A stretch of DNA of 64,000 nt from Nitrospirota bacterium (GTDB lineage: Bacteria > Nitrospirota > UBA9217). The stretch covers positions 64,001 to 128,000 of the forward strand of contig CAVUHW010000010.1 of NCBI GenBank assembly GCA_963741205.1, written 5' to 3'. Every line of letters begins with the position of its first letter. The stretch's first letter is position 1. The notes beneath the pieces were generated by a model. It was not told the origin of the DNA. It searched no databases and saw only the letters and a program-made list of their open reading frames with translations. Positions 8,365 through 47,956 of the stretch are shown piece after piece. The translations under genes were made by a program, and so were the position numbers.

Positions 8365-8438
8365 TAAACCATCAACATCAACATCCTGAAGCTGTTGAGT
8401 TATCACTCTCTGAAATGCTTCAATTATCAACCCGTAGT
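8365..8438 (+). repeat. Island repeat unit (putative recombination site)
   Basis: TAAAC-CATCAACATCAA-CATCCTGAA-GCTGTTGAG; right arm aligns with the 44655 copy. Confidence 0.55.
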
Positions 8439-8937
8439 CATTGATGCCTACCCAAAAAAAACCAGTCGAAATGCTTGACGCCTCAAATCTCATAACATGA
8501 CTATCACTGAAAAAGATGTAAAAGGGATGATGAAAGATGCATAGTCCAGATGACAGCGAGATATACGGCCTTAAGGGGCTTGGTGATTCCAAGCCCCTTT
8601 TTGCGAGGCGGATCTAAACTATGTCGATTGGAATGTCTATCCCTTCGGGTTCCCCGACCCGAAGCATCGAATTATCGAGTTATTAACCTGCAAGTTGTCG
8701 GTTCAAATCACCCAGTCGTTGTGGTGTTTCCAACTTTTGCAACAGCCATCCGTATCCGACAATATCGACCTATAAGATACTGTTCTTTTATGCTTTATCT
8801 TAAGGTTAAATTCGACTATACTTTTTGTGTAAATGTTGTGCTTCGTATAGCCTGAAGCTGACGTCTCGCAGCGGGTGCCGCAGCAGGCTAAATGTCTCTT
8901 GATGCGCGGCTAATTATAGAAGCGAACTTAACAGACT

Positions 8938-9720
8938 ATGAACTTGAAAACAGTAACTGCCACGAGATATGTAACTCCATTGCGCGAAGGTGGATCGCTT
9001 CCAGCAATAGTCGAAGCCGATGATGATGGAATGTATGTCCTCAAATTCCGCGGCGCAGGTCAGGGACCCAAAGTTCTAATCGCTGAGTTGTTGGGAGGGG
9101 AGATCGCCCGCGCAGCAGGTCTGCCAGTGCCTGAAATCGTCTTCGTTGAGCTCGACGTTGATCTCGCCCGCACCGAACGCGACCCGGAAATACAAAGCCT
9201 AATAAAAGCGAGCGCTGGCCTCAATCTGGGGCTTGACTACCTGCCCGGTGCTGTCACGTTTGACCCGGTTGCAGAGAAGCTTGACGCGGATCTCGCCTCG
9301 TCGGTCGTCTGGTTTGACGCTTACGTGTCAAACGTCGACCGTACTCCACGCAATACGAACATGCTCATGTGGCACCGACGAGTCTGGCTCATCGATCACG
9401 GCTCGGCCCTCATCTTCCATCATAAATGGACCGACTACCTGGAATCCAGCCGGGACCCTTTCCATATGATAAAAGACCACGTTCTACTCCCGTTTGCCAC
9501 TTCGCTCCGAGAAGTGGACTCGAAGATAGTCGGACGGCTCACGCAAGACGTCATTGACAACATAGTTAAACTTATTCCTGATGCTTGGCTGGTTGGAGAC
9601 TCTCCGTTCAACGATATCAACCAACACCGGGACGCTTACCTTGAGTATCTAATGAGCCGGCTAGAGCCGCCGCATGTTTTCCTGGAGGAGGCGATCCATG
9701 CGCGATCACTATACGTATGA
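8938..9720 (+). CDS. HipA-like (HipA_2) kinase
   Basis: PLREGGSLP, YVLKFRGAGQG, NVDRT..N.N and LIDHG kinase motifs. Confidence 0.88.
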   Translation: MNLKTVTATRYVTPLREGGSLPAIVEADDDGMYVLKFRGAGQGPKVLIAELLGGEIARAAGLPVPEIVFVELDVDLARTERDPEIQSLIKASAGLNLGLDYLPGAVTFDPVAEKLDADLASSVVWFDAYVSNVDRTPRNTNMLMWHRRVWLIDHGSALIFHHKWTDYLESSRDPFHMIKDHVLLPFATSLREVDSKIVGRLTQDVIDNIVKLIPDAWLVGDSPFNDINQHRDAYLEYLMSRLEPPHVFLEEAIHARSLYV

Positions 9721-10108
9721 TTATGCTATAATTCGAGTCGTTCCCAAGGTCGAGCGGGAAGAATTCATCAATGTTGGAGTGATAATCTGGTGCCAGTCCA
9801 AAGAATTTCTCGATGCCTGCATTGAACTAGATGAACAGCGGCTTATGGCACTTGATTCAACATTGGATGTCGGAACAATCCGGTCCCATCTGGCGACCAT
9901 CCCCGCTATTTGTGCTGGCGGAGATCAGGGTGGACCGATTGGCCAACTATCTCAGCGGGAGCGTTTTCATTGGCTTGTTGCACCTCGAAGCACCGTCATC
10001 CAGACATCGCCCGTGCACACCGGTTATTGTAAGAACCCATCCACCGTACTCGAGCATCTGCTTAACACGATGGTGCGAACGTCGCGCGCCTCACAAGAGA
10101 ACAAATAA
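9698..10108 (+). CDS. DUF3037 domain protein
   Basis: YAIIRVVPKVEREEFINVG...RFHWLVAPRSTVIQTS; overlaps the kinase gene. Confidence 0.88.
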   Translation: MRDHYTYDYAIIRVVPKVEREEFINVGVIIWCQSKEFLDACIELDEQRLMALDSTLDVGTIRSHLATIPAICAGGDQGGPIGQLSQRERFHWLVAPRSTVIQTSPVHTGYCKNPSTVLEHLLNTMVRTSRASQENK

Positions 10109-10164
10109 CCAGCGGGTACGATTGCGACGGTGATAGCCCGTCGCACCTCACTCGAGTATTAACT
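10103..10164 (+). other. Degenerate attC-like site
   Basis: AAATAAC at the stop codon, central TGCGACGG/CCGTCGCA hairpin, ATTAACT in place of GTTRRRY. Confidence 0.45.
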
Positions 10165-10246
10165 TTTCAAAGGTTGCAAGTGTCAGTAATTGGTGCGCTA
10201 TAATTCACCTATGTATACAATCTGATGAAAAAAGGAGAATCGGCGA

Positions 10247-10462
10247 ATGAGCAACCCTCTTATGATGGACCTGGAACCGGGGACCTACTATTGGTGCACC
10301 TGCGGAAAGACCAAGACCACGCCATTCTGCGATGGAGCTCACAAGGGATCGTCGAAGCAGCCGCTGCAATTCGCCGTCGTGGAGAAAAAGAGGACGGCGT
10401 TGTGCAACTGCGGACGGACGAAGACTCTGCCCTATTGCGATGGTTCTCATCTGAAGAAATGA
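10247..10462 (+). CDS. CDGSH iron-sulfur domain protein
   Basis: Two motifs, CTCG..PFCDGAH and CNCG..PYCDGSH; GGAG RBS. Confidence 0.9.
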   Translation: MSNPLMMDLEPGTYYWCTCGKTKTTPFCDGAHKGSSKQPLQFAVVEKKRTALCNCGRTKTLPYCDGSHLKK

Positions 10463-10627
10463 TCAGAGTGGTTGGGGGCTTGTACCGGAATCGCGTGTCC
10501 GATTCATGGTTGATATCGCAGAGACTGGTTGTGTCATTGTAAATGGACTCAATCAGGCCTTTATTATGAGCAACCTGTTAAACCGTCGCGACAGTGCCGG
10601 TTCCTTAGTGAAAACGCGGAGGTGAAC

Positions 10628-11191: not shown

Positions 11192-11758
11192 ATGTCACAG
11201 AAAAAAATAGCCGTCCTTGTAGGGAGCCTTCGCAAGGAATCATATAACCGGAAAATGGCAAAGGCGTTAATGAAGCATTCGCCTGATTCTCTAAGTCTCG
11301 AAATTATCGAGATCGGAGGGCTCCCGTTTTACAATCAGGACCTTGATGACGACCCGCTGGCTGCCTGGACCGAGTTCCGTGAACGTTTGAAGAAATTTGA
11401 CGGCGTCTTGTTCGTCACACCGGAATACAATCGATCCGTTCCCGGAGTGCTTAAGAACGCTATCGACGTGGGTTCCCGCCCCTATGGAAAAAACGCGTGG
11501 GCTGGAAAACCTGGTGCAGTTGTGAGCGTCTCGCCCGGTGCCATCGGCGGCTTTGGCGCAAACCACCATCTCAGGCAATCACTGGTATTCCTTAATGTTC
11601 CTGCAATGCAACAGCCGGAAGCATACATCGGGAAAGCCGGGGAGCTCTTCGATGAGCGAGGCGACCTGTCCAATGAGTCAACCCGGGAATTCGCGACAAA
11701 GTTCATGCATGCCTTCGCGGCGTGGGTTGAAACCAACGCGTCCGGCGGAAGGCAATAA
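11192..11758 (+). CDS. NAD(P)H-dependent FMN reductase (ChrR-like)
   Basis: GSLRKESYN, TPEYNRS and LKNAIDVGSRPYG. Confidence 0.92.
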   Translation: MSQKKIAVLVGSLRKESYNRKMAKALMKHSPDSLSLEIIEIGGLPFYNQDLDDDPLAAWTEFRERLKKFDGVLFVTPEYNRSVPGVLKNAIDVGSRPYGKNAWAGKPGAVVSVSPGAIGGFGANHHLRQSLVFLNVPAMQQPEAYIGKAGELFDERGDLSNESTREFATKFMHAFAAWVETNASGGRQ

Positions 11759-11880
11759 TCTCCGAGTGACGTTCGTATGAAAAAAACGGACAACAAGGCA
11801 TCGGTCATCTCGCAAGAATGAGTCCAACTGCGCTGACATCCTGATGAAAATAACAAGAAATGTCAAGGGGGACATACACG

Positions 11881-12781
11881 ATGGAAAACAGAAAAATCAG
11901 GAAAGTATTCAAGAGCAAGCCTACTCTCGAAGGAGCGGGAGTCCATCTCAGACGGGTATTCGGAAACAGCGAGGTCCCGCTGTTCGATCCATTCCTGATG
12001 CTCGACGATTTCCGCAATACCGACCCCTATCAGTATATCAAGGGGTTTCCCTGGCACCCCCATCGAGGCATCGAGACGATCACGTACGTGCTCAAGGGCG
12101 ACGTGGAGCACGGCGACAGCATGGGCAACAAGGGCGTTATCACGTCGGGAGACATGCAGTGGATGACCGCGGGAAGTGGCATCATCCACCAGGAGATGCC
12201 GCAGGGAGACGACAACGGGGTCATGGAGGGATTTCAGCTCTGGGCCAACCTCCCAAAAGCCGACAAGATGATGGACACCCCGGTACCGCGATATCAAAAG
12301 CTCGCAGGTGCCGGAAGTTGTGACGAAGAGCGGCGCGAAGATCAAGGTCATCTGCGGGACCGTGGAGGGCAGGCAGGGGCCGGTCAGGGACATCGTCATC
12401 GATCCCGAATATCTCGACGTTTCCCTCCCGGCCCTTTCCGAGTTTGTCCATCAGACCCCGCGCGGCCACACGGTCTTTGCCTATGTCATCGGGGGAAAGG
12501 GAGTCTTCTGCAATGAGAAGAACCCCTTCGCCTACGATGCCCTAGGGGAGAACTATTTCGACATGAAGCGCGATCCCTACATCCACAACGGGACGGCCGT
12601 GCTCTTCGGCGACGGCGATCAGGTGACGGTCTCGGCCCAGGGCGAACCCGTCCGCTTTCTGCTCATATCCGGCAAGCCAATCGGCGAGCCCGTGGCCTGG
12701 TACGGTCCGATCGTGATGAATACGGAGGAGGAACTGGAAGTCGCGTTTGAAGAGTATCAGAACGGTACGTTCATTAAGTAA
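11881..12781 (+). CDS. Pirin family protein (frameshift near 12280)
   Basis: DPFLMLD, GFPWHPHRGIETITY, MTAGSGIIHQE and GPIVMN across two frames. Confidence 0.9.
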
Positions 12782-13124
12782 GGCGTCAGTAACGCTGCAT
12801 ACAATCCGTATAGAACCTTATGAAGAGAGGGAGAGGAGAGAACAATGAAGCCATAACTTCACCGGCTTGGCATAGTTTGGGAGCCAGGCTGGCTTGAAAG
12901 TATTGCGAAGTACTACTGGAATATCGCAGTCTTATCAATCTAACGCAGCCGCATAGTTATAGATATTGTCGAGGACCGTGATGGCGCCAAAGAACAACAG
13001 ATTACATTCGTAACTTTCATCGATTCCTGCATCCTGTACGTGTTAAATCCCACTCCAAATGGAGAGCAGGTCCTTCCAGCCCACTAAAAAGCCTCCTTTA
13101 TGGAGGCTCATTGATTGGATGCTT

Positions 13125-13523
13125 CTATTTTGTATATTCTCCCCGGTAGGTAATGGCATTAATGACGGCACCCTGAGGGTCCTGAATGACGCAAAACCGT
13201 CCGACATTCGGTATGTCCTGAGGCGGCACCAATAGTCGGGCGCCAAGCTGCTCTGCTGTCCGCGCCGTCAGGTCAACATCATCGACGGTTACATAGGCGC
13301 CCCACATAGGATGCATCCCCGGGGACTCTTTTGGAATCGCCATGATTCCACCAATCCTGTTGCCTCCAGCTTTGACCTCCGTGTAAGCCATGCCGGGCAT
13401 GAACATATCCTCCACCTCCCAGCCGAACAACTTTGCGTAAAATGCCTTTGCTGCTGCGACATCTGTCGTCATCAGTTCGCACCAACTGAACGCACCGTGT
13501 TGCCTGAATTGCTCCATGTTCAT
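13125..13523 (-). CDS. VOC/glyoxalase family protein
   Basis: WCELMTTD..AKAFY..LFGW and GRFCVIQDPQGA; GGAGG RBS. Confidence 0.9.
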   Translation of the reverse strand: MNMEQFRQHGAFSWCELMTTDVAAAKAFYAKLFGWEVEDMFMPGMAYTEVKAGGNRIGGIMAIPKESPGMHPMWGAYVTVDDVDLTARTAEQLGARLLVPPQDIPNVGRFCVIQDPQGAVINAITYRGEYTK

Positions 13524-13963: not shown

Positions 13964-14033
13964 TGAAACTCCCGTGATAATCATTCTGTATCTGTTGACG
14001 TTGCGCTTATCCGTAAAACCCACACTTCATGTC
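13964..14033 (+). repeat. Island repeat unit; 5' exon of intron A
   Basis: TGAAAC-TCCCGTGATAA-TCATTCTGTA-TCTGTTGA...ACTTCATGTC; joins TAAC of the 20579 unit once the intron is removed. Confidence 0.6.
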
Positions 14034-14355
14034 GTCGCGCCAGGTCAAGCCTGGGAAAGGTGGTGGACCAGAAGCCGAAACCTTTCGTCGTGATTCTGTA
14101 GGTAATCAATCCTACCTGGTAAAGCCTGGTCAGCAGCCAGAAGCGAGTCTTGCATGCGCCTAGGTGACTATGTGTGTGAAGCGTAGACAGCTACTGCAAA
14201 AGCCGTGTGATTGAGCCCCGAAATAGCCTCGTGGGAGCTTTCGCCCTCGACATAGCGGGAGCAGCATCGATCGTGCAGTATTGACCTTGCACGACCGATC
14301 CTACCGGGGTCAGAGAGCAGGGCATATGCAGAAGAGGATCACCCAGGAACCTGGG

Positions 14356-16291
14356 GAAAGCGCCGGGATAAACCGGCATAGAGTAGGGAATGAAAGAGTC
14401 CTACGTGAAAGGATGAGCTGATCCATCACGGCCCCGAGTCATGCGCGGGCGGTCGCGAGGCTGCACGTGAAGCGTTGACAGGGGAAGCATAGGCCAGCCA
14501 ATGAGCTCCGAAATCACCCCTTCGGGGTGCCGACCACGTCCCAGGAACGGGAAGGCAACATGGATAACGGCGATAAACAGCCAGTCGTAGTCCGGCCCCG
14601 CGGAGTCTGAGACCCTGTGCATGTGCTTACACTCTATGTTCGAGAACCGGGAGAGCTCAGCAGTTCCTGCCGTTAAATCACATGGCGGCAGGACGGCAAG
14701 GGAAGGCCAGTGGCCGTAATCCTTGCATGCACGCTGCTGAGCAGTCTGACATCGGCGTACTACCGAAGAAGGGGCCGAACAAAATGGTGTGCTCCCATGC
14801 CATGGCGGAGGTTCTGGAGGGAAGGCTGATGACCAAGGGGAAATTCTGAAGAGTCGTCTGCGACCTGTACGCGGAGACAGGAGGAAGCATTGAACGGACT
14901 TGACAGGATACGTGAGGCAGCGGTAAGGGACAAGAAACTTCGGTTCACCAATTTGATGCATCATATCACGGATGAAATGCTCCGAGATGCCTACTCTGCG
15001 CTCAAGCGCAACGCGGCATGCCGGAGTAGACGATATGACATGGCATGAGTATGGTGAGCGCCTGGAGAGCCGGATAGCGGATCTCCATGGCCGTGTGCAG
15101 AGTGGCAGGTATCCGGGCGAAGCCCTCGAAACGGGTTTGGATACCGAAACCGGACGGTCGTCAACGGCCGATCGGCATTGCCGTGCTGGAAGATAAGATA
15201 CGTTGAACAGGCGGTGGTATGGGTACTCAATCAGATCTATGAGCAGGACTTCCTCGGTTTCAGCTACGGATTTCGACCTGAACGCAGCCAACATAACGCG
15301 TTGGATGCAATCTGGGTCGGCATCAAGCAACGGAAGGTAAAATGGGTGCTGGATGCCGACATCAAGAGCTTTTTCGACACGATAAATCATGCGTGGCTGA
15401 TGAAGTTCCTAGAGCATCGCATCGCAGACCCTCGGATGCTCCGCCTGATCCGGAAGTGGCTCAGAGCCGGGGTATCAGAGGATGGCAAGTGGTCAAGAAC
15501 AGAAGTGGGCACGCCGCAAGGGTCGGTGATATCGCCTTTGCTCAGCAACATCTACCTGCATTATGTTCTTGACGAGTGGGTACAATCTTGGCGAAAGAAC
15601 GAGGCGCACGGTGAAATGATCATCGTGCGCTACGCGGATGACTTCGTCATGGGTTTTCAGCACCTGCATGAAGCGAAACGATTTCTTGAGGAAATGAAGG
15701 AGCGATTTGCCCAATACGGCCTGGAAATCCATAGTGAAAAGACCCGACTCATCGAGTTCGGACGATTTGCGGAATCAAATCGTACTGAGCGAGGAGAGAA
15801 AAAGCCTGAAACATTTGACTTTCTTGGGTTCACGCACATTTGCAGCCGAACCCTCAAGGGCAATCATTTCACGATTCATCGTAAGACAATCGCCAAGCGT
15901 CTTCGGGCAAAGCTCAAAGAAGTGAGGGAAGAGGTCATACGCAGACGGCATGAGCCAGTACCGGTACTTGGTAAATGGCTTCGTTCAGTCGTGCAAGGTC
16001 ACCTCAACTACTTTGCGGTGCCCGGCAACACAACGGCAATTAAGGCGTTCCGCAGGGAAATCAACAAGGCATGGCTATACGCGTTGAGGCAACGCAGCCA
16101 GAAGTCCAGTTATCTACCGTGGGACCGAATCAAACTCTTAATTGCGACGTGGATACCTACAGCCATAATACTGCACCCGTACCCAAGCCAGAGGCTTCGC
16201 GTGAACTACCCGAGGTAAGAGCCGTGTGAAGTAATACTTCTCGCACGGATCCGTGCGGGGGGCGTCTGGCAACGGACGTCCCTACCGCGAT
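14356..16291 (+). mobile_element. Group II intron B nested in domain I of intron A
   Basis: Splits A's GGAACCTGGG|AGGTC motif; EBS1 CCCAGG (14540-14545) complementary to CCTGGG (14350-14355); D5 GAGCCGTGTGAA..CACGGATC; ends CTACCGCGAT. Confidence 0.9.
14829..16218 (+). CDS. Group II intron RT/maturase of intron B (several 5' frameshifts, no En domain)
   Basis: FSYGFRP, DADIKSFFDTI, GTPQGS.ISP and VRYADDF; maturase X domain. Confidence 0.88.
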
Positions 16292-16562
16292 AGGTCTTGT
16301 TACTCCGTTTCTAAATGCCGGTGGGGATGACGGAACGAATAACTCCAGGCCTCAAGCGTCTGCGCAGAGATGTTCGAGGAGGTGCGTAATGGCACGAAAC
16401 AAAACGATCAGCGCGAGAAACGGTATCGCCAACTGAAGGAAACGAAAGGCGGCGAGATGGGAAGCAAGACGTCGTAGCGCCTTCATAGTACCGATGAGGC
16501 AGGGGAACGAATCCAATCGGACCCTGCGGAGGTAAGGGGGGCGTCATGTTGTAGAACCGTTG

Positions 16563-17093
16563 ATGGGAAAGACAGAGGATGCGATGGAATCCGGAAATAC
16601 AGTCTACACGAAACAGCAACGGATAGCAGAACTCGCGAGGATTCACCCTGATGTAAGTTTCACGTCTCTCGCCCACCACATTGATTTAGTGTGGCTCTAT
16701 GAAGCATTCGGTCGAACGCGGAAGGACGGAGCGACGGGCATAGACAACGTGACAGCAGAGGAGTACGAGCAAGAGTTAAACACGAATCTGCGATCACTGT
16801 TGGAACGCGCCAAATCGGGGAAGTACTATGCGCCACCGGTACTACGGGCGCATATCCCGAAAGACCCGGCAAAGAAGGAAACCCGTCCTATCGGTATACC
16901 GACGTTCGAGGATAAGGTGCTTCAGAGGGCCTGGCAAATGGTGCTGGAGCCACTATATGAACAGGAATTTCTGGACTGCTCATACGGGTTCCGGACAGGG
17001 CGTTCCGCCCACGACGCGTTGCAATCGTTGTGGAAGCAGATGATGGATATAGGCGGATGCTGGATCATCGACCTCGATATTCGGAAGTTTTTC
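16563..17093 (+). CDS. RT/maturase of intron A, part 1 (RT0 to RT3)
   Basis: GATGIDN, RPIGIPTFEDK, CSYGFR and DLDIRKFF, then interrupted by GTGCG. Confidence 0.88.
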
Positions 17094-17749
17094 GTGCGCC
17101 AGGGTAAGCCCGGCGCTTTCAGCGGGTGCAATTCCCGCCCCGGCAAGGGGAATGAGCCGCCTCACCGGGAATCGAGTCTTGGGCTCATGAAGGCAACGAC
17201 ATGAGTTAAGCGTAGACAGAGCGATGTCCAGGCCGTAACGCAAGTGAAGCGATAGAGCCTCGTGATACATCCGGAGGCCGACAGGGTCGAAAACCTGGAA
17301 GGCTACAGTAGGCGACGAAAAAGGGCGATGGTCGTTGGAGACTCCGGCGGGGTCTGAGAGCACGGCATGGGCAGAAACGGAAGCGTCATGGAACCTGGGA
17401 GATCCACCGCCGTCTCGGTCTGGCGTACAGACCGAGTATGTCTACCGAAAGGACCATCCTGAGGGAGAGAAACGCGACGGTGGAAGTCGGACCGCTGATA
17501 GTACTCGGAGTGCGGGAAAGCCGCATACAGGGGGAAGCGGCGGGGCAGGTTGAGTTGCTGGTCCGGGGAAACATTACCTACACTCAGAGGTAGGAGCACA
17601 ATGTCTACACAACCGGATCAGATCGATGGGTATGACGTTCACCGAACGAGTGCAACCTGGGGAGCCCGTTGCGGGAAATTCGCACGGCGGGTTCTGCGAG
17701 GGGGGACAGGCACAAGAGTACAATACTCAAGGCCTGTCCCTACCCCACC
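17094..17749 (+). mobile_element. ORF-less group II intron C
   Basis: GTGCGCC start; near-identical to intron D RNA; D4 reduced to a remnant (MSTQPDQI); D5 GAGCCCGTTGCGGGAAA; ends CCCACC. Confidence 0.9.
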
Positions 17750-20503: not shown

Positions 20504-20578
20504 AGAACCGAATGCGTTAATCGCGCACGTTCGGGTCTGTGGGGGGCTGGGGCAGGTGACTGCCCTGGCCTACCTGGC

Positions 20579-20654
20579 TAACATTCAGTGCACTGATCAT
20601 CCTGAAACGAACGTTCCTAGCCTCTCGTAAAAACGTGAACTTCCTGTCGTAACT
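20579..20654 (+). repeat. Island repeat unit; 3' exon of intron A
   Basis: TAAC-A-TTCAG-N13-CTGAA...AACGTGAACTTCCTGTCGTAAC. Confidence 0.7.
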
Positions 20655-37995: not shown

Positions 37996-38139
37996 CAACG
38001 GCATGCAGCGGACTCCGCAATGAGCTTGGATGATACTTTCTTGCTTGCATTTTCAAGCCGAATAAAACAGATTTGACGTTTATCGAATCTGTTTAGTAGT
38101 AGGTGCATTCATCAGGCGCCGGGATGCTGAAGATTAACA
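37990..38139 (+). other. Degenerate long attC-like site
   Basis: CGTAAC-AACGGCATGCAGCGGAC left arm at the stop codon; CGCCGGGATGCTGAAG-ATTAACA right arm. Confidence 0.45.
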
Positions 38140-38251
38140 AATTCCGGTCGTAATGCTACAAACAGACTTCTTTTGGAAAACAACAACGACGAAAATCAGC
38201 ATAAAATCAGAATGCTACCCCAGAGGCGGTTGTAATTTTCAGAGCCGGCAC

Positions 38252-39091: not shown

Positions 39092-39118
39092 GGTGACCTC
39101 CTTTCGTTGCCTCTGGGG

Positions 39119-39190
39119 TGAAAGCCCGTAATATCCCTGTATTCAAAGTGACTAAATATATTATGGAGCACTTCCGACTTCCGGACCAAC
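39119..39190 (+). repeat. Island repeat unit directly upstream of the recombinase
   Basis: TGAAAGCCCGTAATATCCCTGTA..ACTTCCGGACCAAC; aligns with 13964 TGAAACTCCCGTGATAATCATTCTGTA. Confidence 0.55.
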
Positions 39191-39232
39191 ATTTCTCTTG
39201 AAAGTATAGCAATAATGCTATATATTTAATCA

Positions 39233-39589
39233 ATGGAATGGTCGATAGAATACTATGTGGCTGATAATGGCAAATCACCGGCCAGAGATTTCATCGACTC
39301 TCTTTCTGCTGAAAGTAAAGCTAAATTCATTTTCATTGCTGATTTGCTCACAGAGTATGGCTTGAACGTCAGAGAACCCTATGTTAAACCGATAACGGGA
39401 ACGAAGAAGCTTTTTGAGATCAGGATAAAAGACCGGCAGAACATTCATCGGGTATTCTACTTCGCCTATACCGGCCGGAAATTGATTCTTTTACACGGTT
39501 TCACGAAGAAGACCGATAAGACACCTTCACGGGAAATAGAGATTGCAGAAGCCAGAATGATAGATTATATGGCAAGAAGGGGATTATGA
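39233..39589 (+). CDS. RelE/HigB (Gp49-like) toxin
   Basis: EPYVKPI..LFEIR..RVFYF..ILLHGFTKKT.KTP.REI. Confidence 0.9.
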   Translation: MEWSIEYYVADNGKSPARDFIDSLSAESKAKFIFIADLLTEYGLNVREPYVKPITGTKKLFEIRIKDRQNIHRVFYFAYTGRKLILLHGFTKKTDKTPSREIEIAEARMIDYMARRGL

Positions 39590-39879
39590 TTATGAATTAT
39601 AAAGAGCACAGAAAAGAGTTACTGAAGAACAAAGCAGTCAAGGCGGAGTACGAAAAGCTTCTGCCTGAATATGAGCTTGCCCGTAGCATCATAGAACAAC
39701 GGCTCAGGAAAAAAATGACTCAACTCGATGTGGCGAAAAAGACCGGCATGCCACAATCTTCAGTTGCGAGAATTGAGGGGCTGACCCACGGGCTGCCCCG
39801 CCTATCGACGCTTAAAAAGATTGCGCAAGCTCTCGATGCGGAGCTTGTCATCACGCTCAAGGCAAAGAAAACGGCATAA
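39586..39879 (+). CDS. XRE-HTH antitoxin (HigA-like)
   Basis: MTQLDVAKKTGMPQSSVARIE HTH; toxin-first operon with overlap. Confidence 0.9.
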   Translation: MIMNYKEHRKELLKNKAVKAEYEKLLPEYELARSIIEQRLRKKMTQLDVAKKTGMPQSSVARIEGLTHGLPRLSTLKKIAQALDAELVITLKAKKTA

Positions 39880-39940
39880 AACTTCGAGGAATAAACGCAG
39901 ATGATGTACTCTGCACTCCAAACTATCATTCGGAGGCCAA

Positions 39941-40201
39941 ATGGGTGCCCACTTCAAACCTCATCTTCGGGACGCAATTTTAAAAGCAGTTGAGAATCAA
40001 CTCGCCAATGATAACCCACCTGAGACAAAGCAAACTTACGATCGCCTGGTACGCGAAGGGTATTCCGAAAACGACGCAAAAATTCTCATCGCAAACGTCG
40101 TTGCTGTCGAAATATTTGAAGTTGTAAATCGACGAGAACCTTTCAATCATCAGAGGTTTGTTAAAGCTTTGAATCGGTTGCCAACTATTCCTGAAGCATA
40201 G
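39941..40201 (+). CDS. Conserved hypothetical protein
   Basis: VENQL..DPPETKQTYDRL..GYS pattern; GGAGG RBS. Confidence 0.75.
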   Translation: MGAHFKPHLRDAILKAVENQLANDNPPETKQTYDRLVREGYSENDAKILIANVVAVEIFEVVNRREPFNHQRFVKALNRLPTIPEA

Positions 40202-40204
40202 ATA

Positions 40205-40268
40205 TTCGAGCTATATTCTGGATCTGTGATTGATGATAGACAGCCGAGCGTTTACTTCAGAGCGTAAC
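40205..40268 (+). repeat. Island repeat unit
   Basis: ATATTCTGGATCTGTGA..ACTTCAGAGCGTAACATTC versus ACTTCATGTC-TAACATTC at the intron A site. Confidence 0.5.
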
Positions 40269-40689
40269 ATTCTACGAGACTTTAGGCACTCATTCGATTC
40301 ATCGTTCAGTGCATGATACTGGTTTTTTTACACCCTTGTCACAACATTGACATTCCATACTTGTTGTCGATGACCACGAGAATGTCGAAGAACGACAAAA
40401 CCATTCAAAATAAAAGATAAATTTGATTCGAAAATGGATGAGAAAATCGAGAAGAAGCGCGCATAAGCGGCACATCCACCCATTGCCGTTAATACGGCAA
40501 ATCCTGAAGAGGGGCCCTCGAGGGGATAAGTAAGTCCTCTATGAATCCTCCGATCTGCAGAATTAAGCAAGGAGAGTAAAACCTGCTGTCTCAAATCGAC
40601 TCACGATTACCGCGATTACTGCGTGTGCCGCTCGCAATACCATCGAGAAAGATGTATTCTGCGCTGCCCTTGTCCCACGTCGCGGTGAT

Positions 40690-42820
40690 TTAATCAAGGG
40701 CGTCCCAGGGAGCCGAGATTGTTCCGTCGACCGTCCCGTCACCGTTCGTATCCACTGCTGAAACGGCCACGCCATTCGTCACGGTGACGGTCAGTTGGCT
40801 ATCGTCGGTCGAATTACCTTGAATACTCCGGAGGTTGGCGCAGTGACCGATGCCCCTCCTTGAAGCGGCTGTGCTATTGTCACTGCGAGCGGCCCCAGCC
40901 CGGAGTCCACTGTCAGCGTATCAGTTGTCGAACCAAGGCTGAAGCTCGTGTTTGTAACAGTTGCACTGACAGTGAATGGTCCGATGACGTGCGTGCGGTT
41001 TATCGTTGCACTGCTCTCGCTCCATGTGAACGCCTGCTGCACCGGCGTATCAATGGACTGTGCGAGCTCGGTGAACGTGCCGCCTGCCGCCACTCGCTGG
41101 AAATGCATCCCGCCAGCCATGGTGCTCGTCCCGACGGAATCGACGATCGTTAGGTTGATCGAGGTCAGCGTCGTCTGAAGGGTATAGTTCTCCGACTGCG
41201 GATCCCCGATGACCCCATCAAGCGTGACGGTGAGGCCGCCGTTGATCGTGGCCTGACCCGTGATACATCCAGTGAACGTCAACTCGAAAGAAGTCCCGGT
41301 ATGCAACGGAATCGGCGGCAAGGGATTGAAGGTGTAGGTACCGGCGCTGCAGAAGTCCGTGACCGGATCGTTCCGAGTCTGGCGATCAGCAGATCGAGCG
41401 CCGTCGAGCCGAGTTGACGCGGTTTGGTAAGACCCGACACCGCGGCAGCTGCCACCTCGATGGCGTTGTCGAACTTGATAGTGCCCGTCGTGGCGGGAAC
41501 GCTGATGGTCAGGTCGGTCTCACCGAGGTTGATGGTGTCGCCGTACTTGTCGAGCTTGGCGAGGAGCACGTTACCATCGCTGCTGCCGGTGACGGCATAT
41601 CCTCCGTCTGATACTGCGCAGATGGCGCCGCCGTGGTCGCTCACCGTCGGCCGATTGCCCTTGACCTTCTGCCAGAGCGTATTGCCGTTCGTATCCACCT
41701 TGATCAGGAACAGATCCTCCAATTGAAAGTCGCCGTTAGCATTCGCACTAATTTGTCCTCCATAGGACTGCGTTGTTCCGAAAATCATGTAATTGCCGTC
41801 TTGGGTCAGTATTACTCCCTGGGCTTCGTCCCGTCCAGCGCCGCCGTAAGTCCGGCGCCAGATCTCGTTGCCGCTCCCGTCGGTTTTGATAACAAGCGCG
41901 TCGAGCGGCCCCGTGACCGGCGGTTGCCCGCTTACCAGACCGTGAGAACCCGCCAACACAAACCCGTCAGGAAGCGCAGCAATCGAGGAGATGGTTTCAA
42001 AGTCTGTCGAGGAGGTATTGTAGGCTTTTTGCCAGAGTTTATTCCCCTGGGTGTCAATCTTGAGAAGGAATCCCTTCCACCCAAAACAGCCGGTGTAACC
42101 GGCAATCACAATGTTGCCGTCAGACGTGGCAGCAATGTCACGACCGAAGTCGCTGCCCGCGGCGCAGGAACTTGCATAGTCGAATTTTTCCCACACAACA
42201 GCGCCTGCCAAGTCCGTACGAATGACATAGACGTTTACCGAGGACCCCCCATTTCTGGCTCCCGCTATGATGTAACCGTCACTTACCGGCAATACTGCAT
42301 ACCCGACATCGTCTCCCGTTCCGCCGTAGGTCTTCGGCCAACCCGCAACGGTGTTTCCTGAAGCGTCAATTTTGAGCAGGTACACATCGTCATCGCCTGC
42401 AGCCGTCTTTGCCCGACCTGCGGCGATATAGCCGCCGTCACTGGTTTCTCTTATGGCATTTGCTGTCGCGCTTCCTGTCTCTGCAATACGCTTCTTCCAC
42501 TGGGTTGCGCCCTTAGCGTCGGTCTTCATAAGGAATACGTCAAGAGGGGAGGAAAAATTCGAGGACTGGGATCCGGCTACGACGAAGCCATGGTCGCTAG
42601 TCTCCTGAACCGAGGTTCCCGCACCGACGGCGATGTTGGCGTCATACGGGTACCAGAAGATCGTGGCGCTGTCCGCGCCGGTTCCAACACCACTTGGCGG
42701 TCCCTGATCTACGGCAATGTCATTTCCACCACCGCCTCCGCCCCCGCATGATGCGATATACAGGGAAGCCAATGCACCCAAGAGAATACCTGCCATGATT
42801 ATCAACGGGAGTCTCCTCAT
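40690..42820 (-). CDS. Large lipoprotein with beta-propeller-like repeats (two or more frameshifts)
   Basis: Lipobox IASC-GGGGG; repeated D..G...W.K.YG / T.DGGY..AG units. Confidence 0.75.
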
Positions 42821-43465
42821 GACTTTGCACCTCCTCCACTGGTTTCTGGATGAAAAGGGACCACATGACATTGAAACGAGACTGTTCGCTCGTATTGTTC
42901 AAGAATAAGCCGGTCTTGTTTTCTTTCTCGGCAGCCCGGCTGTATTACGTTTTCAAGACGCTCAGTTCCACTTTACCTTTTGCGAATAGTTTGGCATTAT
43001 CGGGGACAACTACATTTAATCACTGGTATGATAAATCGTCAATTTCAAGCTTGCGCAACTATTCACTTTATTACAGATATTATGTCCGGAGAAAAAACAG
43101 AGGGATTAACAGCGGGATTAAACTGAATGATGATAATCAAGATAAACGTTACATGAGTGAGCGGTGCATAAATGTTTTAAACAACGAAAGTAGTATGAAA
43201 GGATTGTGTCGCAGTATAAAAGAGCCCCGTCTGCTACTTTATCGAGACCTGCCAAAGGTTGCCTGACTTCGTCTCCGACCCTATCTCATAGCCAGGCAAT
43301 GACTGTTCACGCTAAGAGTTTATGCTGCCAGAACCAGGATAAACTGGGTGACATTTTCAACCCGAGGTTCGACCCGAAATTCGCATTTTTTTAATCGCGC
43401 TAAGGCGAGAGTTAGTAAGTGGCATTGATGCCGACCGAGAAAAGGCAGTCCGATCTATTCTGGTC

Positions 43466-43543
43466 GAAACGTTCAGTAACGACGTCATCCTGAAGGTGTT
43501 GTTTTTGACTGATACACTGAGATGCATGTTTCCTGTCGAATTT
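43466..43543 (+). repeat. Island repeat unit
   Basis: GAAAC-G-TTCAG-N13-CTGAA-GGTGTTG..TTCCTGTCGAATTT. Confidence 0.7.
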
Positions 43544-43730
43544 CTTGTGAAGGATATTTGTTCGAGTCCACTATGGGGAGCCAGACATTCCCAAAACTGG
43601 ACACGCATCCGCTCATAGCGAGAAGGTGCCAGTTTTATTTTTTCAATATCCGCAGCCCTCGTCGCATGACTTCCCTGTCGTATACCCTGTTGCCGTCGCC
43701 CCTGATTTCATCCGCCAGAACCTTTAGCTT

Positions 43731-43820
43731 TATTATTTGACACGATAATTGGAGAAGCCTAAAATCGATTTAATCCGTAGCCAAGTATTTTCCGACCCCC
43801 GTGTCACTTGACAAGGGGGC
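43731..43820 (+). repeat. ~90-bp repeat with terminal hairpin (copy 1)
   Basis: TATTATTTGACA..AGCCTAAAATCG..GTATTTTC..CCCCGTGT; second copy at 50965-51052. Confidence 0.65.
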
Positions 43821-43857
43821 TATAGGATGTCCCCAAAGTCACCATTTGGAGGAAGTG

Positions 43858-44535
43858 ATGAAGCTACCTTTCACTGTTGAGCAGTTCTTTGATACGCTCG
43901 CAAGATACAACCTGAGTGTCTGGCCTATGCAGATCATCCTGATTGTGCTGGCGATCGCGGTTATCATTTTGCTATTCAGAGTCCGTCATTACAACAGCCG
44001 CCTTATCGCAGCCGTTCTGTCGTTCTTCTGGGCGTGGATGGCCATCGCTTACCATTTCACATTCTTCACCGCCATCAATCCTGCTGCATTGTTCTTTGGT
44101 GGATTCTTCTTGGTGGGTGCTCTTTGGTTTGCATGGATTGGCGTTCTCAAGAGCAAGCTCCAGTTTTCTCTTCATGGAGGCATTCGAGCTTGGCTCGGTG
44201 GTTTGCTCATAGTGTTCTCCCTTATCATCTACCCGCTAATCGGCTTCCTCTTCGGTCATCGCTATCCCGCAACGCCTAACTTTGGTCTGCCGTGCCCCAC
44301 AACGATTTTCACGCTTGGTATATTGTTATTTGGGGTGGTACCATTCCCACGGTCTGTTTTTATTGTCCCAGTGCTTTGGAGCGCGATAGGCTCTTTTGCT
44401 GCCTTCCAACTCAGAGTCCCTCAAGATTATGGGCTGCTAATCGCGGGATTGATCGGGCTAATTGCTGCTATTTTGCCGGCAAGAACTGCTAACCATGCCA
44501 TGCACCGGATCGCGGATAAATCCGGCTCCCGGTGA
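43858..44535 (+). CDS. DUF6064-like membrane protein
   Basis: MKLPFTVEQF..YN..VWP.Q and FGLPCPTTIFT; multi-TM; stop codon lies inside the attC. Confidence 0.75.
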   Translation: MKLPFTVEQFFDTLARYNLSVWPMQIILIVLAIAVIILLFRVRHYNSRLIAAVLSFFWAWMAIAYHFTFFTAINPAALFFGGFFLVGALWFAWIGVLKSKLQFSLHGGIRAWLGGLLIVFSLIIYPLIGFLFGHRYPATPNFGLPCPTTIFTLGILLFGVVPFPRSVFIVPVLWSAIGSFAAFQLRVPQDYGLLIAGLIGLIAAILPARTANHAMHRIADKSGSR

Positions 44536-44550
44536 TGACAACGTTATAGC
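44487..44550 (+). other. Integron attC site (orphan)
   Basis: TGCTAAC inverse core, ATGCACCGG/CCGGTGAT L boxes, GTTATAG core; 64 bp. Confidence 0.75.
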
Positions 44551-44626
44551 GATATAAATTCTTTCGATTGCCCTGGATTCGTCTTTTTCGGGGAGCCGTG
44601 CCAGCCTCGAGCATCAATTCCGATTG

Positions 44627-44703
44627 TAAACTTCAGTGCGACTATCATCCTGAAGGTATTGATTAAGCGACTCCTCAAAACTCCAATACTACACTTCGAA
44701 TTT
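44627..44703 (+). repeat. Island repeat unit
   Basis: TAAAC-TTCAG-N13-CTGAA-GGTATTG..CTTCGAATTT; TCGAATTT starts 42 nt after CTGAA, as in the 43466 copy. Confidence 0.7.
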
Positions 44704-44915
44704 ACTACCGACTAACCGTAGAATGCCTGTTCAATAGCGTTGACATATCGCGGCATCAAGCTTATATTTAGTTTCGTCAGATCATATGATTTGTCGGCTC
44801 GAAGGCGAGGTGACATGGATGTTACTCGGGGGCTGAAGCGCTACTGCGCGGCCGCATCAACAGCCTGACCTATGATTTTATGCAGTGATTAAACCAGACT
44901 GGGTGAGCGCTGGAC

Positions 44916-46219
44916 ATGAAACCCCGAATCCTTCTCATTAATCCCTGGATACATGACTTCGCCGCCTATAACCTCTGGGCAAGGCCCCTCGGCCTGCACA
45001 AAGTCGCGGAGTTCCTGAGTGCATTTGACGCCGAACTTCTTCTTATAGACTGCACGAATTCATTCGAGTGGAACAAGCACGGCGTCGGCAAATACCGAAG
45101 TGAGATAATCCAAAAACCTGATCTGCTCCGCGGGGTGCCGAGATATTACAAGCGCTACGGCATGTCCGTCAATGAATTCCGGCTTCGGCTCAAATCACTC
45201 CTGCCAATAGACATCGTCCTCATGACAGGGGTCATGACATACTGGTACCCGGGGGTGCAGGAGGCTATTTGGCATGTGCGCGACGTTTCTGGCAAGGTTC
45301 CCGTTGTCATCGGCGGCATTTATCCAACGCTATACCCCGATCACGCGCTCAAAAACACCGGCGCGAGCGGTATTCACATGGGAAGGGTAGATGAGGGCCT
45401 CATCAGGATTTTTCATGATTTTGGGATAGTCATCGATCGCCGGCGCGGCCCTGTTTCACACCATACCTTGGGGTTTCATGCTGATCAAGCATTTGCGCCG
45501 CTTCTTACGTCATCGGGATGCCCTTTTCACTGCTCCTACTGCGCATCGAATCTGCTTTATCCTGTTTACGAAAAACGATCCGCAACGGATATCTTAAACG
45601 AGATTCGGCGACTGGCCGCTCTCGGGGTAAGCGACTTCGCGTTTTACGATGATGCGTTGCTATACCGGTCCAGTGAGCATATCAAGCCCCTCCTTGAGGG
45701 TATAATCCGGTCCGGCCTCTGCGTCCGGCTTCACGCCCCGAATGGCCTGCACGCCCGCTTCATAGATCCCGATCTGGCATATTTGATGAGAGAGTCCGGC
45801 TTTGCGACCATACGGCTTGGTCTCGAGACCGTAGATTCCTCAAGGCAGGGAAAAACCGGTGGGAAGGTGGCGAATGCAGATTTCGAAAGGGCGGTCATAC
45901 ATTTGAAACGGGCTGGATTCACAAGGGTCCAAATCGGCGCATATCTGCTGTATCGGATTGCCTGATCAGGGACTGGAAGAGGTCGAGAGGGGAGTAGAAT
46001 TCCTGGAAGGGCAGGATGTGCACATCCATTTAGCGGAATTTTCTCCGATAAGGGGTACGGCCTCCTGGGATGATCTGGTAACGCTGGCGCGTCATTACTG
46101 ACGATCTCGACCCGCTTCTTACGAACAACACTGCTTTTTCGTACCTGTATTCCGGGTATGATTGGGACATGGTGAACAAGCTGAAGATCAGGGTAAAGGC
46201 CCATAACCAGGCCATCTGA
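44916..46219 (+). CDS. B12-binding radical SAM protein (frameshift near 45955)
   Basis: PLGL, GGIYPT, TSSGCPFHCSYC, FYDD and GLET. Confidence 0.85.
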
Positions 46220-46308
46220 TTATTTCTGAATAAATCTCCGGCACCCCCTATGATGTGTCCTTAGTGCCCTGTGAGTAATCGTGGACTTGGCTTCCCAGTG
46301 AGGGTTAA

Positions 46309-46602
46309 ATGGATACCGATGATTTGACAGAAATGGCTTATGCTACTATCTCAATTGCCAACGAAGTCCTTGACGCACTCCGCTTGGAAATTGGCGCTTC
46401 CGCAAAAGATTACTTGTCAGAGGATGATTTTTTGACAGGCACACTTTCAAATCTAAAAGATATTCTCGCTGATCCTGAGAGCTACTTGGATTCGTGGAAT
46501 TACATGGATACAGTAAACTCGAAACGCTTTGCAAAGGGGATTGAGAAAATAATTCGCCTAGTCGAGATAGAGAAGGCTGCCCTGTTCGGGATGAAATGTT
46601 GA
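46309..46602 (+). CDS. Hypothetical protein
   Basis: 97-aa ORF with GAGG RBS; its 3' end runs into a repeat unit. Confidence 0.65.
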   Translation: MDTDDLTEMAYATISIANEVLDALRLEIGASAKDYLSEDDFLTGTLSNLKDILADPESYLDSWNYMDTVNSKRFAKGIEKIIRLVEIEKAALFGMKC

Positions 46603-46669
46603 ACCACAACGTCATCCTGAAATAAACGGCAGCATCAGGTCTCAGAAACGAGAACTTCATTTCGAATTT
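46592..46669 (+). repeat. Island repeat unit
   Basis: TGAAATGTTGAACCACAACG-TCATCCTGAA-ATAAACG..AAACGAGAACTTCATTTCGAATTT; right arm aligns with the 20579 copy. Confidence 0.65.
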
Positions 46670-46765
46670 AATATACCCATTCGAGTCCGGCATGGGGACG
46701 GCAGTCGTTTCACGGATTGGAGAGGAGACTTTATCGTGGCGTAATCCGGAAGTTCTGTTAACTCC

Positions 46766-47578
46766 CTAACGCCGGGGCACCTTCCCCGGATCATCAGGCG
46801 CAACCATCATGTTCCGGACGTCGATCATCGATTGTTCGCTTACATCGAGCAAACCTTCCTGCGGAAGGTCTAGATCGGCAATCAGCAGGATGATAAGCGA
46901 AAAAGTCAGCGCGAGCGATAGGATAATGGGGGACCTTTTCGATCCGGACAGCCCGGCATGATACCCCATTCCTCCCATTGCCAGCGACGAAATGAGATAA
47001 AGCGCCATCCAGATGCTGCCGGGAATATGGTTTCGCGTAACCAGCATGACGCGTTTTGCATGGAGATCCATCAGGCTGTTCAACGACTGGATGAAAAGTC
47101 CGACAACCGATTCCCGCGGATACTTTCTCCCGAGGACCTCGGTCTGGGCCCAGAGCTGGCGTTGGAGCTTCTCTGATCTTGTGATAGTCTGTTCGTAAGT
47201 CCGCCGTTGAACACCCGCCACGCGCATGTCGACGTACTCGCGCAGGATGCTGCGAACTTGCGAGCGATGCGGCTCTTCCAGCAGGCCAGCGCGCTGATAA
47301 GTCGTCCCGATTGCATTGGCCTCTTCGAGCACCGCCATTTTCCTTGCATCGAAGCGAGTAGCGGCAAGCCCGAAGGTAAAGGCAAGCATGAATGCCAAGA
47401 GTCCGAGCATTGCCCCCACCACCGCACCAACCGGCGTTTCTTTTTCCTGGTCCGAGCGTTGACGACGCCTGGACCCGAGCTGATAGCCGCCCTCAATCGA
47501 CACCAGAACGATCGCAACAGTAGCTGCAAACAACGCCCAGAGCGGCAAGCTAGCAAGCGCCCCTTCGATGGTCTTCAT
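46766..47578 (-). CDS. DUF4239 / bestrophin-like membrane protein
   Basis: LGLLAFMLAFTF..RFDARK..EANAIGT and DLDLP..G. Confidence 0.8.
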   Translation of the reverse strand: MKTIEGALASLPLWALFAATVAIVLVSIEGGYQLGSRRRQRSDQEKETPVGAVVGAMLGLLAFMLAFTFGLAATRFDARKMAVLEEANAIGTTYQRAGLLEEPHRSQVRSILREYVDMRVAGVQRRTYEQTITRSEKLQRQLWAQTEVLGRKYPRESVVGLFIQSLNSLMDLHAKRVMLVTRNHIPGSIWMALYLISSLAMGGMGYHAGLSGSKRSPIILSLALTFSLIILLIADLDLPQEGLLDVSEQSMIDVRNMMVAPDDPGKVPRR

Positions 47579-47885
47579 CTATAATCCTCATGAACTGCCC
47601 TGATCGCATACGTTGACCGCGGCCTTCTTTCGGCCACATCAATGTCTTCACATCGCCGGACATGCCGATAAGGAAACAATGAATATACCTTAGCAGATTT
47701 TGGACGTTCGTCAAGCCAGTGTGGCGGGGCCTATGCGGGTAAAAATCCATGCCCGCTCGGCACAGAAAACACGAAGGAAGTACCTTTAGGAGGAGTTCAT
47801 GTGTAAGATACAACTGCCATCCTTCATCTTCGCGTCATTGTTCGCCAGTGCGCACTACGAGATAAAGTCCGTATTATCAAAAAAG

Positions 47886-47956
47886 TGAAACTCTCATGAA
47901 GTACCTTCCTGAAACAGTATTGTTTCCATTCCTATAAACAATCAATAGTTCGTACT
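47886..47956 (+). repeat. Island repeat unit (degenerate)
   Basis: TGAAAC..TTCCTGAA..TTCCATTCCT..AACAATCAATAGTTCGTACT. Confidence 0.5.

Follow-up and report, generated by a model that had tools for sequence, protein, structure and literature searches.

A Xer-like tyrosine recombinase and a family of directly repeated, core-type sites as candidate elements of a cassette system in Nitrospirota

Integrons are the textbook platform for gene cassettes, and their reach is set by the integrase IntI together with the folded attC site. A single strand of attC folds as an imperfect hairpin, with a RYYYAAC box on the 5′ side and the crossover at G|TT of the GTTRRRY box on the 3′ side. Accessory and toxin-antitoxin modules bounded by short sites are also found as pdif modules on Acinetobacter plasmids, where they are attributed to a Xer-type tyrosine recombinase, while tandem accretion at tRNA/tmRNA islands and in the composite islands of the staphylococcal cassette chromosome (SCC) type leads to stacked modules separated by direct repeats of an att core. 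Here a 64,000-nucleotide stretch of a soil Nitrospirota genome, referred to as the window, is analyzed, in which a family of directly repeated intergenic units separates small groups of genes and is found on both sides of a gene for a 279-residue Xer-like tyrosine recombinase. We propose, with a probability of about 0.6, that these units are duplex core-type recombination sites bounding mobile cassettes and that the Xer-like enzyme is the catalyst. According to the available text of the respective papers, integron integrases form their own subgroup of the simple recombinases and IntDes belongs to a different, arm-binding family (PMC8138268), members of the IS1111 group of insertion sequences (IS) target attC sites (PMC11187229), IS1111-type elements and group II introns parasitise integron sites (PMC11187229; PMC3001079), and IS110 recombinases use a CT core dinucleotide (PMC11208160). 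Full-text literature searching, with supplements outside its scope, returned papers on integrons, pdif and IS110 only and no description of arrays of this kind.

The window comprises positions 64001-128000 of contig C10 of the metagenome-assembled genome (MAG) G000, which consists of 4.27 Mb in 50 contigs (84% complete, 4.9% contamination) and whose Nitrospirota lineage is named by the relatives of the window recombinase. Positions without a contig prefix refer to the window. A preliminary description of the window had listed ten same-orientation copies of the repeat and proposed a genome scan with a profile built from them. With eight copies as the starting profile, iterated twice with nhmmer over G000 (cut-off E<=1e-2), 79 copies are found on 21 contigs. 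The orientation is the same for all copies of a contig in 13 of the 13 contigs with at least two copies, and the copies are clustered, for example 13 on C5, 10 on C41, eight each on C45 and C10 and seven on C9. A sequence-only covariance model derived from 25 G000 copies, termed R1, gives 78 matches in G000; it replaced an IUPAC pattern search of the relatives, the gap of which was too wide and which was blind even to G000 copies. Five of the window copies (20579, 26606, 43466, 44627 and 46592) are part of the training set and match by construction, and together they have dozens of independent relatives at other places of G000 with E values of 1e-9 to 1e-15. The repeat family is real, but diverged.

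With respect to the ten copies listed beforehand, eight hold, whereas those at 39119 and 40205 fail and yield no R1 match at E<=1 when the window is scanned with filters off. Position 39119 had been taken for a copy just upstream of the recombinase; besides giving nothing with R1 at E<=1, this stretch shows no conservation at the corresponding place of orthologous recombinase genes. It was also considered as an attI-like half site and rejected, as the right-block profile detects 0 of 45 regions upstream of the recombinase at 8 bits or more, compared to 0 of 225 shuffled ones. The copy at 47886 is the weakest of those kept: it is found neither by the iterated profile nor by R1 at E<=1, its right module shows 90% identity over 30 nt to unit C45:4883, and it is a probable member of the family. 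Copies at 12992, ~23913, 8258, 27134 and 38132-38214 were absent from the earlier list. Of these, the half copy at 12992 is an 88% repeat of 26580-26635. The earlier observation that the core region of the window and its high-GC block are free of copies is borne out by R1 at E<=0.1, which finds none in 27.3-38 kb or beyond 48 kb.

From left to right, each unit consists of a variable left module, the core, a variable stretch and the right block ACTTCATGTCGAATTT. Column counts over 66 anchored units depict a nearly invariant core, CATCCTGWA, of 9 bp. The left block, TTCC..T.GWAAC.TTCAGCG, occupies positions -29 to -10 and is followed by 5-8 variable bases up to the core; on the right side ~30 variable nucleotides precede ACTTCATGTCGAATTT, and GTTAA is often next. 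Positions -9 to -2 and +8 to +20 around the core carry little information in these 66 units, and conserved inverted arms are not observed. The units reside in intergenic gaps of ~500 bp and are flanked by groups of 1-5 open reading frames (ORFs), mostly on the strand of the unit.

None of the analyses points to a folded element. Rfam 15 at gathering score returns nothing for the units, its only matches within the window being RNase P and group II introns. Single-stranded DNA folds of 55 units have a mean z of -0.5, and the consensus fold amounts to 0 kcal/mol for the top and -0.05 kcal/mol for the bottom strand with DNA parameters and to 0 with RNA parameters. The post-core stretch pairs with its own right block at -5.56 kcal/mol and with the right blocks of other units at -5.54 kcal/mol (p=0.27; shuffled, -5.11 kcal/mol). 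Six intergenic regions scanned for inverted repeats contained nothing resembling attC and no palindrome. The three exact TTCAG-N13-CTGAA dyads reported previously are present in the sequence; as a stem they were rejected, since no covariation is seen, which leaves two conserved motifs. Dispersed repeats of the repetitive extragenic palindrome (REP) or miniature inverted-repeat transposable element (MITE) type were likewise rejected in view of the uniform orientation per contig, the clustering of the units and the lack of a palindrome.

The left and right modules of G000 fall into families that are combined freely. Pairwise comparison of 71 anchored units (2,485 pairs) reveals 41 discordant pairs, in which one side reaches at least 80% identity while the other stays at or below 45%; 23 of them are left-alike and 18 right-alike, and the mixed combinations of left and right arms described earlier for the window are hereby confirmed genome-wide. 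In the left-alike pairs the first mismatch on the right is located at +5 to +13 (21/23) or at 0 (2/23). In the right-alike pairs the last mismatch on the left is located at 0 to -3 (10/18), at -16 (1/18) or at the W position +5/+6 (7/18). These first and last mismatches place the switch inside CATCCTG, and the exchange point consequently lies inside the 7-9 bp of the core. Among the window copies, unit 43450 has the right side of C5:20780 next to a different left side, unit 46578 has the right side of C14:27176, and unit 8365 has its right side in common with C9:29871. Borders of larger duplications are found at corresponding places: those at C5:12822 and C24:23312 both start one base past a core, and those at C9:11241, C32:23759 and C9:4804 end 2-4 bases from one.

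Further junctions were obtained by comparison of window positions 39100-48100 with Logan contigs of public soil and metagenome runs, four of which held 5-7% of the sampled words (shares 0.05-0.07), all as contigs. In runs X1 and X3 the window sequence from 46613 onwards, that is from the C of the core, stands behind two other typical left modules, and a contig of X3 leaves the window at 44657 and proceeds into a right module of another family. Contigs of X1 and X2, which originate from two different studies, continue after 40399 with the left module of a unit absent from the window, which suggests that a unit was lost or replaced beside the 40.4-43.4-kb block. This block holds a 530-residue beta-propeller-like gene on the minus strand. 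A repeat-induced misjoin of these k-mer contigs is unlikely because the bases beside the 9-bp core differ between units. One joint leading from 46698 back to 43673 (one contig, side 55) is located away from any core.

The recombinase of the window is a single-copy gene in G000, where other tyrosine recombinases are few (a Xer-type gene, a broken one, IntI and fragments). The catalytic Arg, His-x-x-Arg, His and Tyr are visible in its translation. Its best NCBIfam match is XerA_Arch with 114.8 bits (cut-off 220), and the scores for XerD (56.4, cut-off 329.6), XerC (53.8, cut-off 335.15) and the IntI model TIGR02249 (42.5, cut-off 265) are also below threshold; the closest sequence match in the PDB is the XerA-type entry 4a8e (E=2.6e-15). 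The ORF and its ribosome-binding site are bracketed by an inverted repeat of 10-11 bp, ACCCCAGAGG in the window and of the GTCTTTGGGGT type elsewhere, which is conserved in nearly all members of the recombinase family (loci L065-L122). It could represent binding sites, an inversion switch or a pairing of the mRNA ends. Homology to the recombinase loci of the closest relatives, G003 and G016, is restricted to 38135-39119, which indicates that the module carrying the recombinase has defined borders of its own.

In species-representative genomes, 59 loci of this recombinase family were detected, belonging to Nitrospirota, Thermodesulfobacteriota (Syntrophales, Smithella, Syntrophorhabdus), Ignavibacteria, Fibrobacter and Anaerolineae. 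Over 648,793 bases, the recombinase strand contains 101 occurrences of the pattern [CT][AT]TCCTG[AT]A and the opposite strand 68, compared to 25 and 32 for the reversed control pattern. At 40-240 nt past the stop codon, mostly ~100-125 nt, it is present on the coding strand in 21 of 53 loci with ~1.6 expected (Poisson p ~1e-16, n=52), and near-variant cores, for example CTTCCTCAA, CCTCCTGAA and CATTCTGAG, occupy the corresponding place in further loci. A block AACATTTCAAnnnGTAATC, resembling the right block of G000, follows the recombinase-linked cores at ~34-56 nt. As in G000, different right sides can be joined at the core to one and the same recombinase-side left flank (L078 versus L080; L087, L088 and L109). 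With a profile of the recombinase-linked sites, 80 sites are detected in these 59 loci, and 69 of them share the strand of the recombinase; after subtraction of the 21 seeds 48 of 59 remain on this strand (z ~4.8 by normal approximation, with array sites being non-independent). The gene is flanked on either side by sites that form arrays of 4-7 with a spacing of 0.6-3 kb, examples being L084, L079, L080, L082 and L078. Position and strand tie the site to this family of recombinase genes in several phyla, a co-occurrence on which the preliminary description had made its proposal depend.

G000 also contains a true IntI (C18:131988-132923, within a 498-residue open frame), which reaches 367.5 bits with TIGR02249 (cut-off 265); no unit is located within ~12 kb of this gene on C18. 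The distribution of both recombinases was compared in 41 genomes, namely G000, 14 relatives of the genus, 10 members of other genera of the family and 16 members of other families, related genomes being non-independent samples. R1 finds units in 19 of them, comprising 13/14 genus relatives, 5/10 genomes of other genera and 0/16 of other families, counts to be read with the fact that both profiles were trained on G000 or recombinase-linked copies and lose sensitivity with distance. An IntI match is missing in 11 of the 19 unit-bearing genomes, among them G001 (27 units) and G002 (two contigs, seven units), and is present in four of the 22 unit-less ones. The presence of IntI does not co-distribute with the units. 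A match to the Xer-like recombinase (E<=1e-20) is found in 6/19 unit-bearing compared to 1/22 unit-less genomes, the six holding 78, 27, 14, 14, 14 and 5 units.

The array of the window begins ~300 nt past a PALP-family gene (6592-7989), which every one of the 14 genus relatives possesses at 84-91% identity. In G001, G002, G003, G006 and G014 the DNA beside this gene matches contig C5 of G000 from 31.2 kb onwards (31.2-36 kb), and C5 itself starts with a plus-strand array reaching ~29.4 kb. The gene adjacency in these five relatives implies that the arrays at 8.3 kb of the window and on C5 are the two ends of one insertion, and the other array contigs probably belong in between. The spans of contigs with at least three units sum to 222 kb, corresponding to ~5% of the assembly. 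In 96,655 bases of the five relatives' regions beside the PALP-family gene no unit is detected with filters off, and the empty site of G001 reads TTTCCTGCAA where G000 has CTTCCTGCAG (~8291). At the right end on C5 no clear terminal unit adjoins the conserved gene. ARAGORN finds no tRNA or tmRNA gene in the window.

The sites are occupied by foreign elements at defined positions. A 1.64-kb IS110 element coding for a 356-residue DEDD/IS110 transposase is inserted in three different units in the arrangement CATC-CT-[element]-CT-GAAG, and is present in 3-4 copies in G000; an element of the same kind occupies the core that follows a recombinase homologue of another genome (L104). A second IS110-family element follows the CTTCC of a split unit in the window; a further copy resides on C45, and the window copy has itself been hit by an IS3-type element (25266-26417; HTH_Tnp_1, rve). 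The same junction is seen in L119 at a recombinase-linked site downstream of a recombinase fragment. Altogether, at least four different units contain an IS110-family element of one kind or the other at the CT of the core. At this IS110 insertion point five extra nucleotides are found in unit C5:7602 (CATCC-TTTTA-TGTAG), where TTTTA may be an IS scar. A nest of group II introns separates the right block of unit 13964 from the truncated left module of unit 20579. Its RF02005 hits represent D1-D4 and its RF00029 hit domain V-VI, and internal repeats of 98% identity are located at 17093 and 17749; being the sole such locus in G000, it does not allow homing into units to be inferred.

Dozens of modules of 0.4-3 kb are present in G000, most of them without a mobility gene. 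In 10 of 66 units an exact TTGACA follows the core at a distance of 90-119 nt, compared to 0-4 in all remaining 30-nt bins, and this peak is missing on the opposite strand. Promoter-like matches of 11 out of 12 positions occur twice, ahead of the DUF6064 and the radical-SAM ORFs. To judge from these motifs, many cassettes may carry their own promoter. The segment C32:3908-5821, which forms the interior of a cassette from 105 nt past one core to 133 nt before the next, shares 91% identity with C26:277721-279636, a chromosomal locus free of units; the match hints at gene recruitment into cassettes.

The coordinates of units, mobile elements and cargo genes are compiled in Table 1. The 27-38 kb region is not part of a conserved synteny, the DUF748 gene having only 45-56% relatives elsewhere in the genomes of relatives. 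This DUF748/AsmA-like gene (27221-30269) is split into two overlapping ORFs of 590 and 526 residues, compared to a single frame of ~1,005 residues in relatives, and is probably frameshifted. A zinc alcohol-dehydrogenase ORF (36926-37645) in the variable region ends inside its Pfam domain and represents a truncated gene. RNase P RNA of bacterial class A (992-1363, 274.7 bits) belongs to the conserved left flank of the window. At the other side the GC content increases from ~0.5-0.57 to 0.72-0.79 at 52000-64000 and stays there up to the contig end (C10:116-160 kb, ~44 kb); genes of this stretch include DUF2298 and a subtilase. The high-GC end of C10 is probably a chimeric assembly or binning join and not part of the G000 genome.

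Table 1. Features of the array. Coordinates are window positions unless a contig of G000 is given.
Feature	Position	Strand	Remarks
Xer-like tyrosine recombinase, 279 aa	38252-39091	-	Phage_integrase, 72 bits
Inverted repeat CCTCTGGGGT, 3′ partner	38217-38226	-	
Inverted repeat CCTCTGGGGT, 5′ partner	39110-39119	+	between recombinase start and first cassette
Degenerate site downstream of recombinase	38132-38214	-	core-like CATTCTGAT 38206-38214; block-like CATTACGACCGGAATTTGTTAATC 38132-38155
Weak first junction of array	8258-8346	+	pseudo-core CTTCCTGCAG at ~8291; R1 E=0.0056
Unit	8365-8455	+	core CATCCTGAA at 8382; iterated nhmmer E=1.6e-5; R1 E=0.0018 (hit start 8371)
Left module and core without right block	12992-13053	+	core 13030; R1 E=9.7e-8, model positions 2-63
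Unit	13964-14034	+	core variant CATTCTGTA at 13982; iterated E=7e-4; R1 E=1.8e-4 (hit start 13973)
Group II intron nest	14040-20578	+	four RF02005, one RF00029, three reverse transcriptase/maturase ORFs
Unit	20579-20669	+	core 20598; training-set copy; left module truncated by 3′ end of intron nest
Left half-unit ending CTTCC	23913-23945	+	split by IS110-family element; from sequence
Second IS110-family element	23946-26417	+	transposase 24149-25240 (DEDD_Tnp_IS110, Transposase_20); element end 25197
Unit (listed as 26606)	26589-26701	+	core 26627; training-set copy
Weak unit	27134-27209	+	core CTTCCTGTA at 27167; R1 E=0.016
Unit (listed as 43466)	43450-43551	+	core 43486; training-set copy
Unit (listed as 44627)	44613-44717	+	core 44646; training-set copy
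Unit (listed as 46592)	46578-46680	+	core 46613; training-set copy
Probable last unit	47886-47970	+	core CTTCCTGAA at 47905; weakest copy
1.64-kb IS110 element copies	C5:5094-6735; C41:13750-15379; C9:13169-14796		G000
HipA-like kinase	8938-9720		
FMN reductase	11192-11758		
Pirin	11860-12516		
Glyoxalase	13125-13523	-	
Gp49/HigB-like and HTH pair	39233-39879		
DUF1841-like	39941-40201		
DUF6064	43801-44535		
B12/radical-SAM gene	44916-45965		truncated (ends inside Pfam domain)
Bestrophin-like gene	46766-47578	-	

In the proposed mechanism a cassette would consist of a core, ~30 nt and ACTTCATGTCGAATTT, often an outward promoter, one to few genes and the left part of the next site, such that TTCC..T.GWAAC.TTCAGCG and 5-8 variable nucleotides at the cassette end would lead up to the following core. 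Strand exchange would take place within the invariant core. Recombination of two direct cores would release a circle with one complete site, and the reverse reaction would insert the cassette. The catalyst would be the 279-residue Xer-like tyrosine recombinase, whose own gene is carried beside a site, and arrays in genomes without this gene would be inactive or served in trans. Because no conserved inverted arms flank the core, the left and right blocks may act as accessory or binding sites. The idea already put forward for the window, i.e. cassette borders for a tyrosine recombinase at a site unlike attC, is supported by the lack of a hairpin, the exchange within the core, the missing link to IntI and the link to the recombinase; catalysis by this enzyme is what we infer from these data.

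Several observations weigh against this assignment. The lack of inverted binding arms is unusual for a Xer-like enzyme. The recombinase gene of the window runs opposite to the array and is followed by a degenerate site, and the right-block-like stretch seen by eye after the inverted repeat at 39119 is unsupported by the profile. No recombinase match at E<=1e-20 is found in 13 of the 19 unit-bearing genomes, including the complete-looking G002; G001, despite its 27 units, retains a 108-residue fragment only, and an intact full-length gene is confined to G000, G003 and G016 among the 41 genomes. The contigs of the four public runs contain no circle, deletion or excision junction between two cores. 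Finally, the probable chimeric join on C10 and the quality values of the MAG call for caution regarding the data themselves.

Some of these points would equally be expected if the units were a passive conserved intergenic element, either a promoter or terminator module or a protein-binding site at operon borders, that IS110 elements and introns use as an insertion target, with the recombinase being mere cargo and the mosaics resulting from homologous recombination between IS copies located in different cores and subsequent precise IS loss or from gene conversion. The exact insertion of two IS110-family elements at the core CT of at least four units, the recombination of a CT core dinucleotide by IS110 enzymes as given in the available text of PMC11208160, the scar-like TTTTA in C5:7602, the TTGACA peak after the core and the persistence of units in many relatives without the recombinase all agree with such an element. 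It leaves unexplained, however, why the same core and right block follow the recombinase stop in Thermodesulfobacteriota, Nitrospirota and others and why same-strand arrays of sites surround the recombinase gene; furthermore, the 3-4 G000 copies of the first IS compare poorly to 41 discordant pairs, and a consensus RNA or DNA structure is absent. We consider a passive element rather unlikely. Tandem accretion of independent small integrative or mobilisable islands at one chromosomal attB, one of them encoding the integrase and without a fixed entry site, differs from the proposed cassette system mainly in the entry point of new modules. The position of the recombinase gene at a module edge beside a site is reminiscent of an integrase beside attP, the whole array is inserted between genes adjacent in five relatives, the empty site of G001 retains the core-like TTTCCTGCAA, and many cassettes seemingly bring their own promoter. 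On the other hand, no tRNA or tmRNA gene supplies the core, the 0.4-3-kb modules number in the dozens and mostly lack a mobility gene, and the recombinase, with 279 residues and Xer-like, has no arm-binding domain. This explanation is unlikely.

Atypical attC sites of a chromosomal integron, or of a cluster of attC sites lacking integron-integrases (CALIN), served by the IntI on C18, would account for the same-orientation array, the toxin-antitoxin cargo and the parasitic IS110 elements and group II introns, and this IntI clearly exceeds its curated cut-off. Yet neither single-strand nor consensus folds give a hairpin, complementarity specific to the individual unit is lacking, and the exchange takes place in the middle of the unit and not at a GTT box. 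Together with the distance of more than ~12 kb between intI and any unit on its contig and the distribution of IntI matches among unit-bearing and unit-less genomes given above, this renders the attC assignment very improbable. It is scarcely credible that the units are decayed pieces of a family of small minus-strand protein-coding genes. Short minus-strand ORFs do overlap many units, with a recurring L-Q-D in their translations. However, stops break most of the frames, the residue following Q-D varies between D, V, A and G, so that only the first codon base is kept, the spacing of the two conserved blocks shifts by non-multiples of three, and the core shows no variation even where wobble bases would be expected.

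If the units act as cassette borders in the proposed manner, cassette-based gene capture arose more than once and operates in abundant lineages of soil, sediment and groundwater (Nitrospirota, Syntrophales and relatives). A more far-reaching version, which we regard as tentative and somewhat short of an even chance, would be a second, independent and widespread gene-capture system, in which a small Xer-like recombinase, carried as a cassette within its own inverted repeat, shuffles promoter-bearing cassettes at a duplex core YWTCCTGWA with a block at fixed distance; it would be present in Nitrospirota, Thermodesulfobacteriota and other anaerobe phyla, form mega-arrays of ~222 kb and have its own IS110 elements and introns. 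Finders based on attC are blind to arrays of this type. With the sites as borders, a large set of accessory genes could be marked out in metagenomes, the arrays offer a reason for shattered MAG assemblies in such regions, and the short defined core together with a 279-residue enzyme is a candidate recombination tool.

With integrons the system shares extended arrays in which small cassettes of uniform orientation carry accessory and toxin-antitoxin genes, site halves that move along with the cassette, so that one site would be restored in a circle, a tyrosine recombinase linked to the array, here with units on both sides of the gene, and the parasitism of the sites by IS110/IS1111-type elements and group II introns. 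In contrast to attC, the units form no hairpin and the exchange is located in CATCCTG in the middle of the unit, ~25 nt after a GTAAC-like motif. The recombinase is Xer-like and reaches 42.5 of the required 265 bits on the IntI model; its gene is found inside the array, on the same strand beside a site, and not in divergent orientation at one end, and many cassettes seemingly possess their own promoter. Like pdif modules, the cassettes combine accessory and toxin-antitoxin genes between short sites with a Xer-type enzyme. Unlike these, the sites are direct repeats without conserved inverted arms (dif comprises ~28 bp with a 6-8-bp centre), the comparison with dif being drawn from these arms around the core, the sites are accompanied by a recombinase gene of their own, and the window recombinase stays below the curated cut-offs of XerC, XerD and XerA. 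Stacked modules between direct core repeats, an integrase beside a site and insertion at one locus are also features of tandem islands, whereas the lack of a tRNA/tmRNA target, the smaller and far more numerous modules (79 sites, ~222 kb) and the simple Xer-like enzyme are not. The IS110-family elements at a fixed point of the core and the intron nest abutting unit blocks correspond to IS1111-attC elements and group IIC-attC introns, except that the target, as seen for the IS110 elements, is the CATCCTGWA core and not attC. In the features tested the system thus falls outside attC, IntI, Xer/dif-pdif and tRNA islands, yet it is integron-like in its working.

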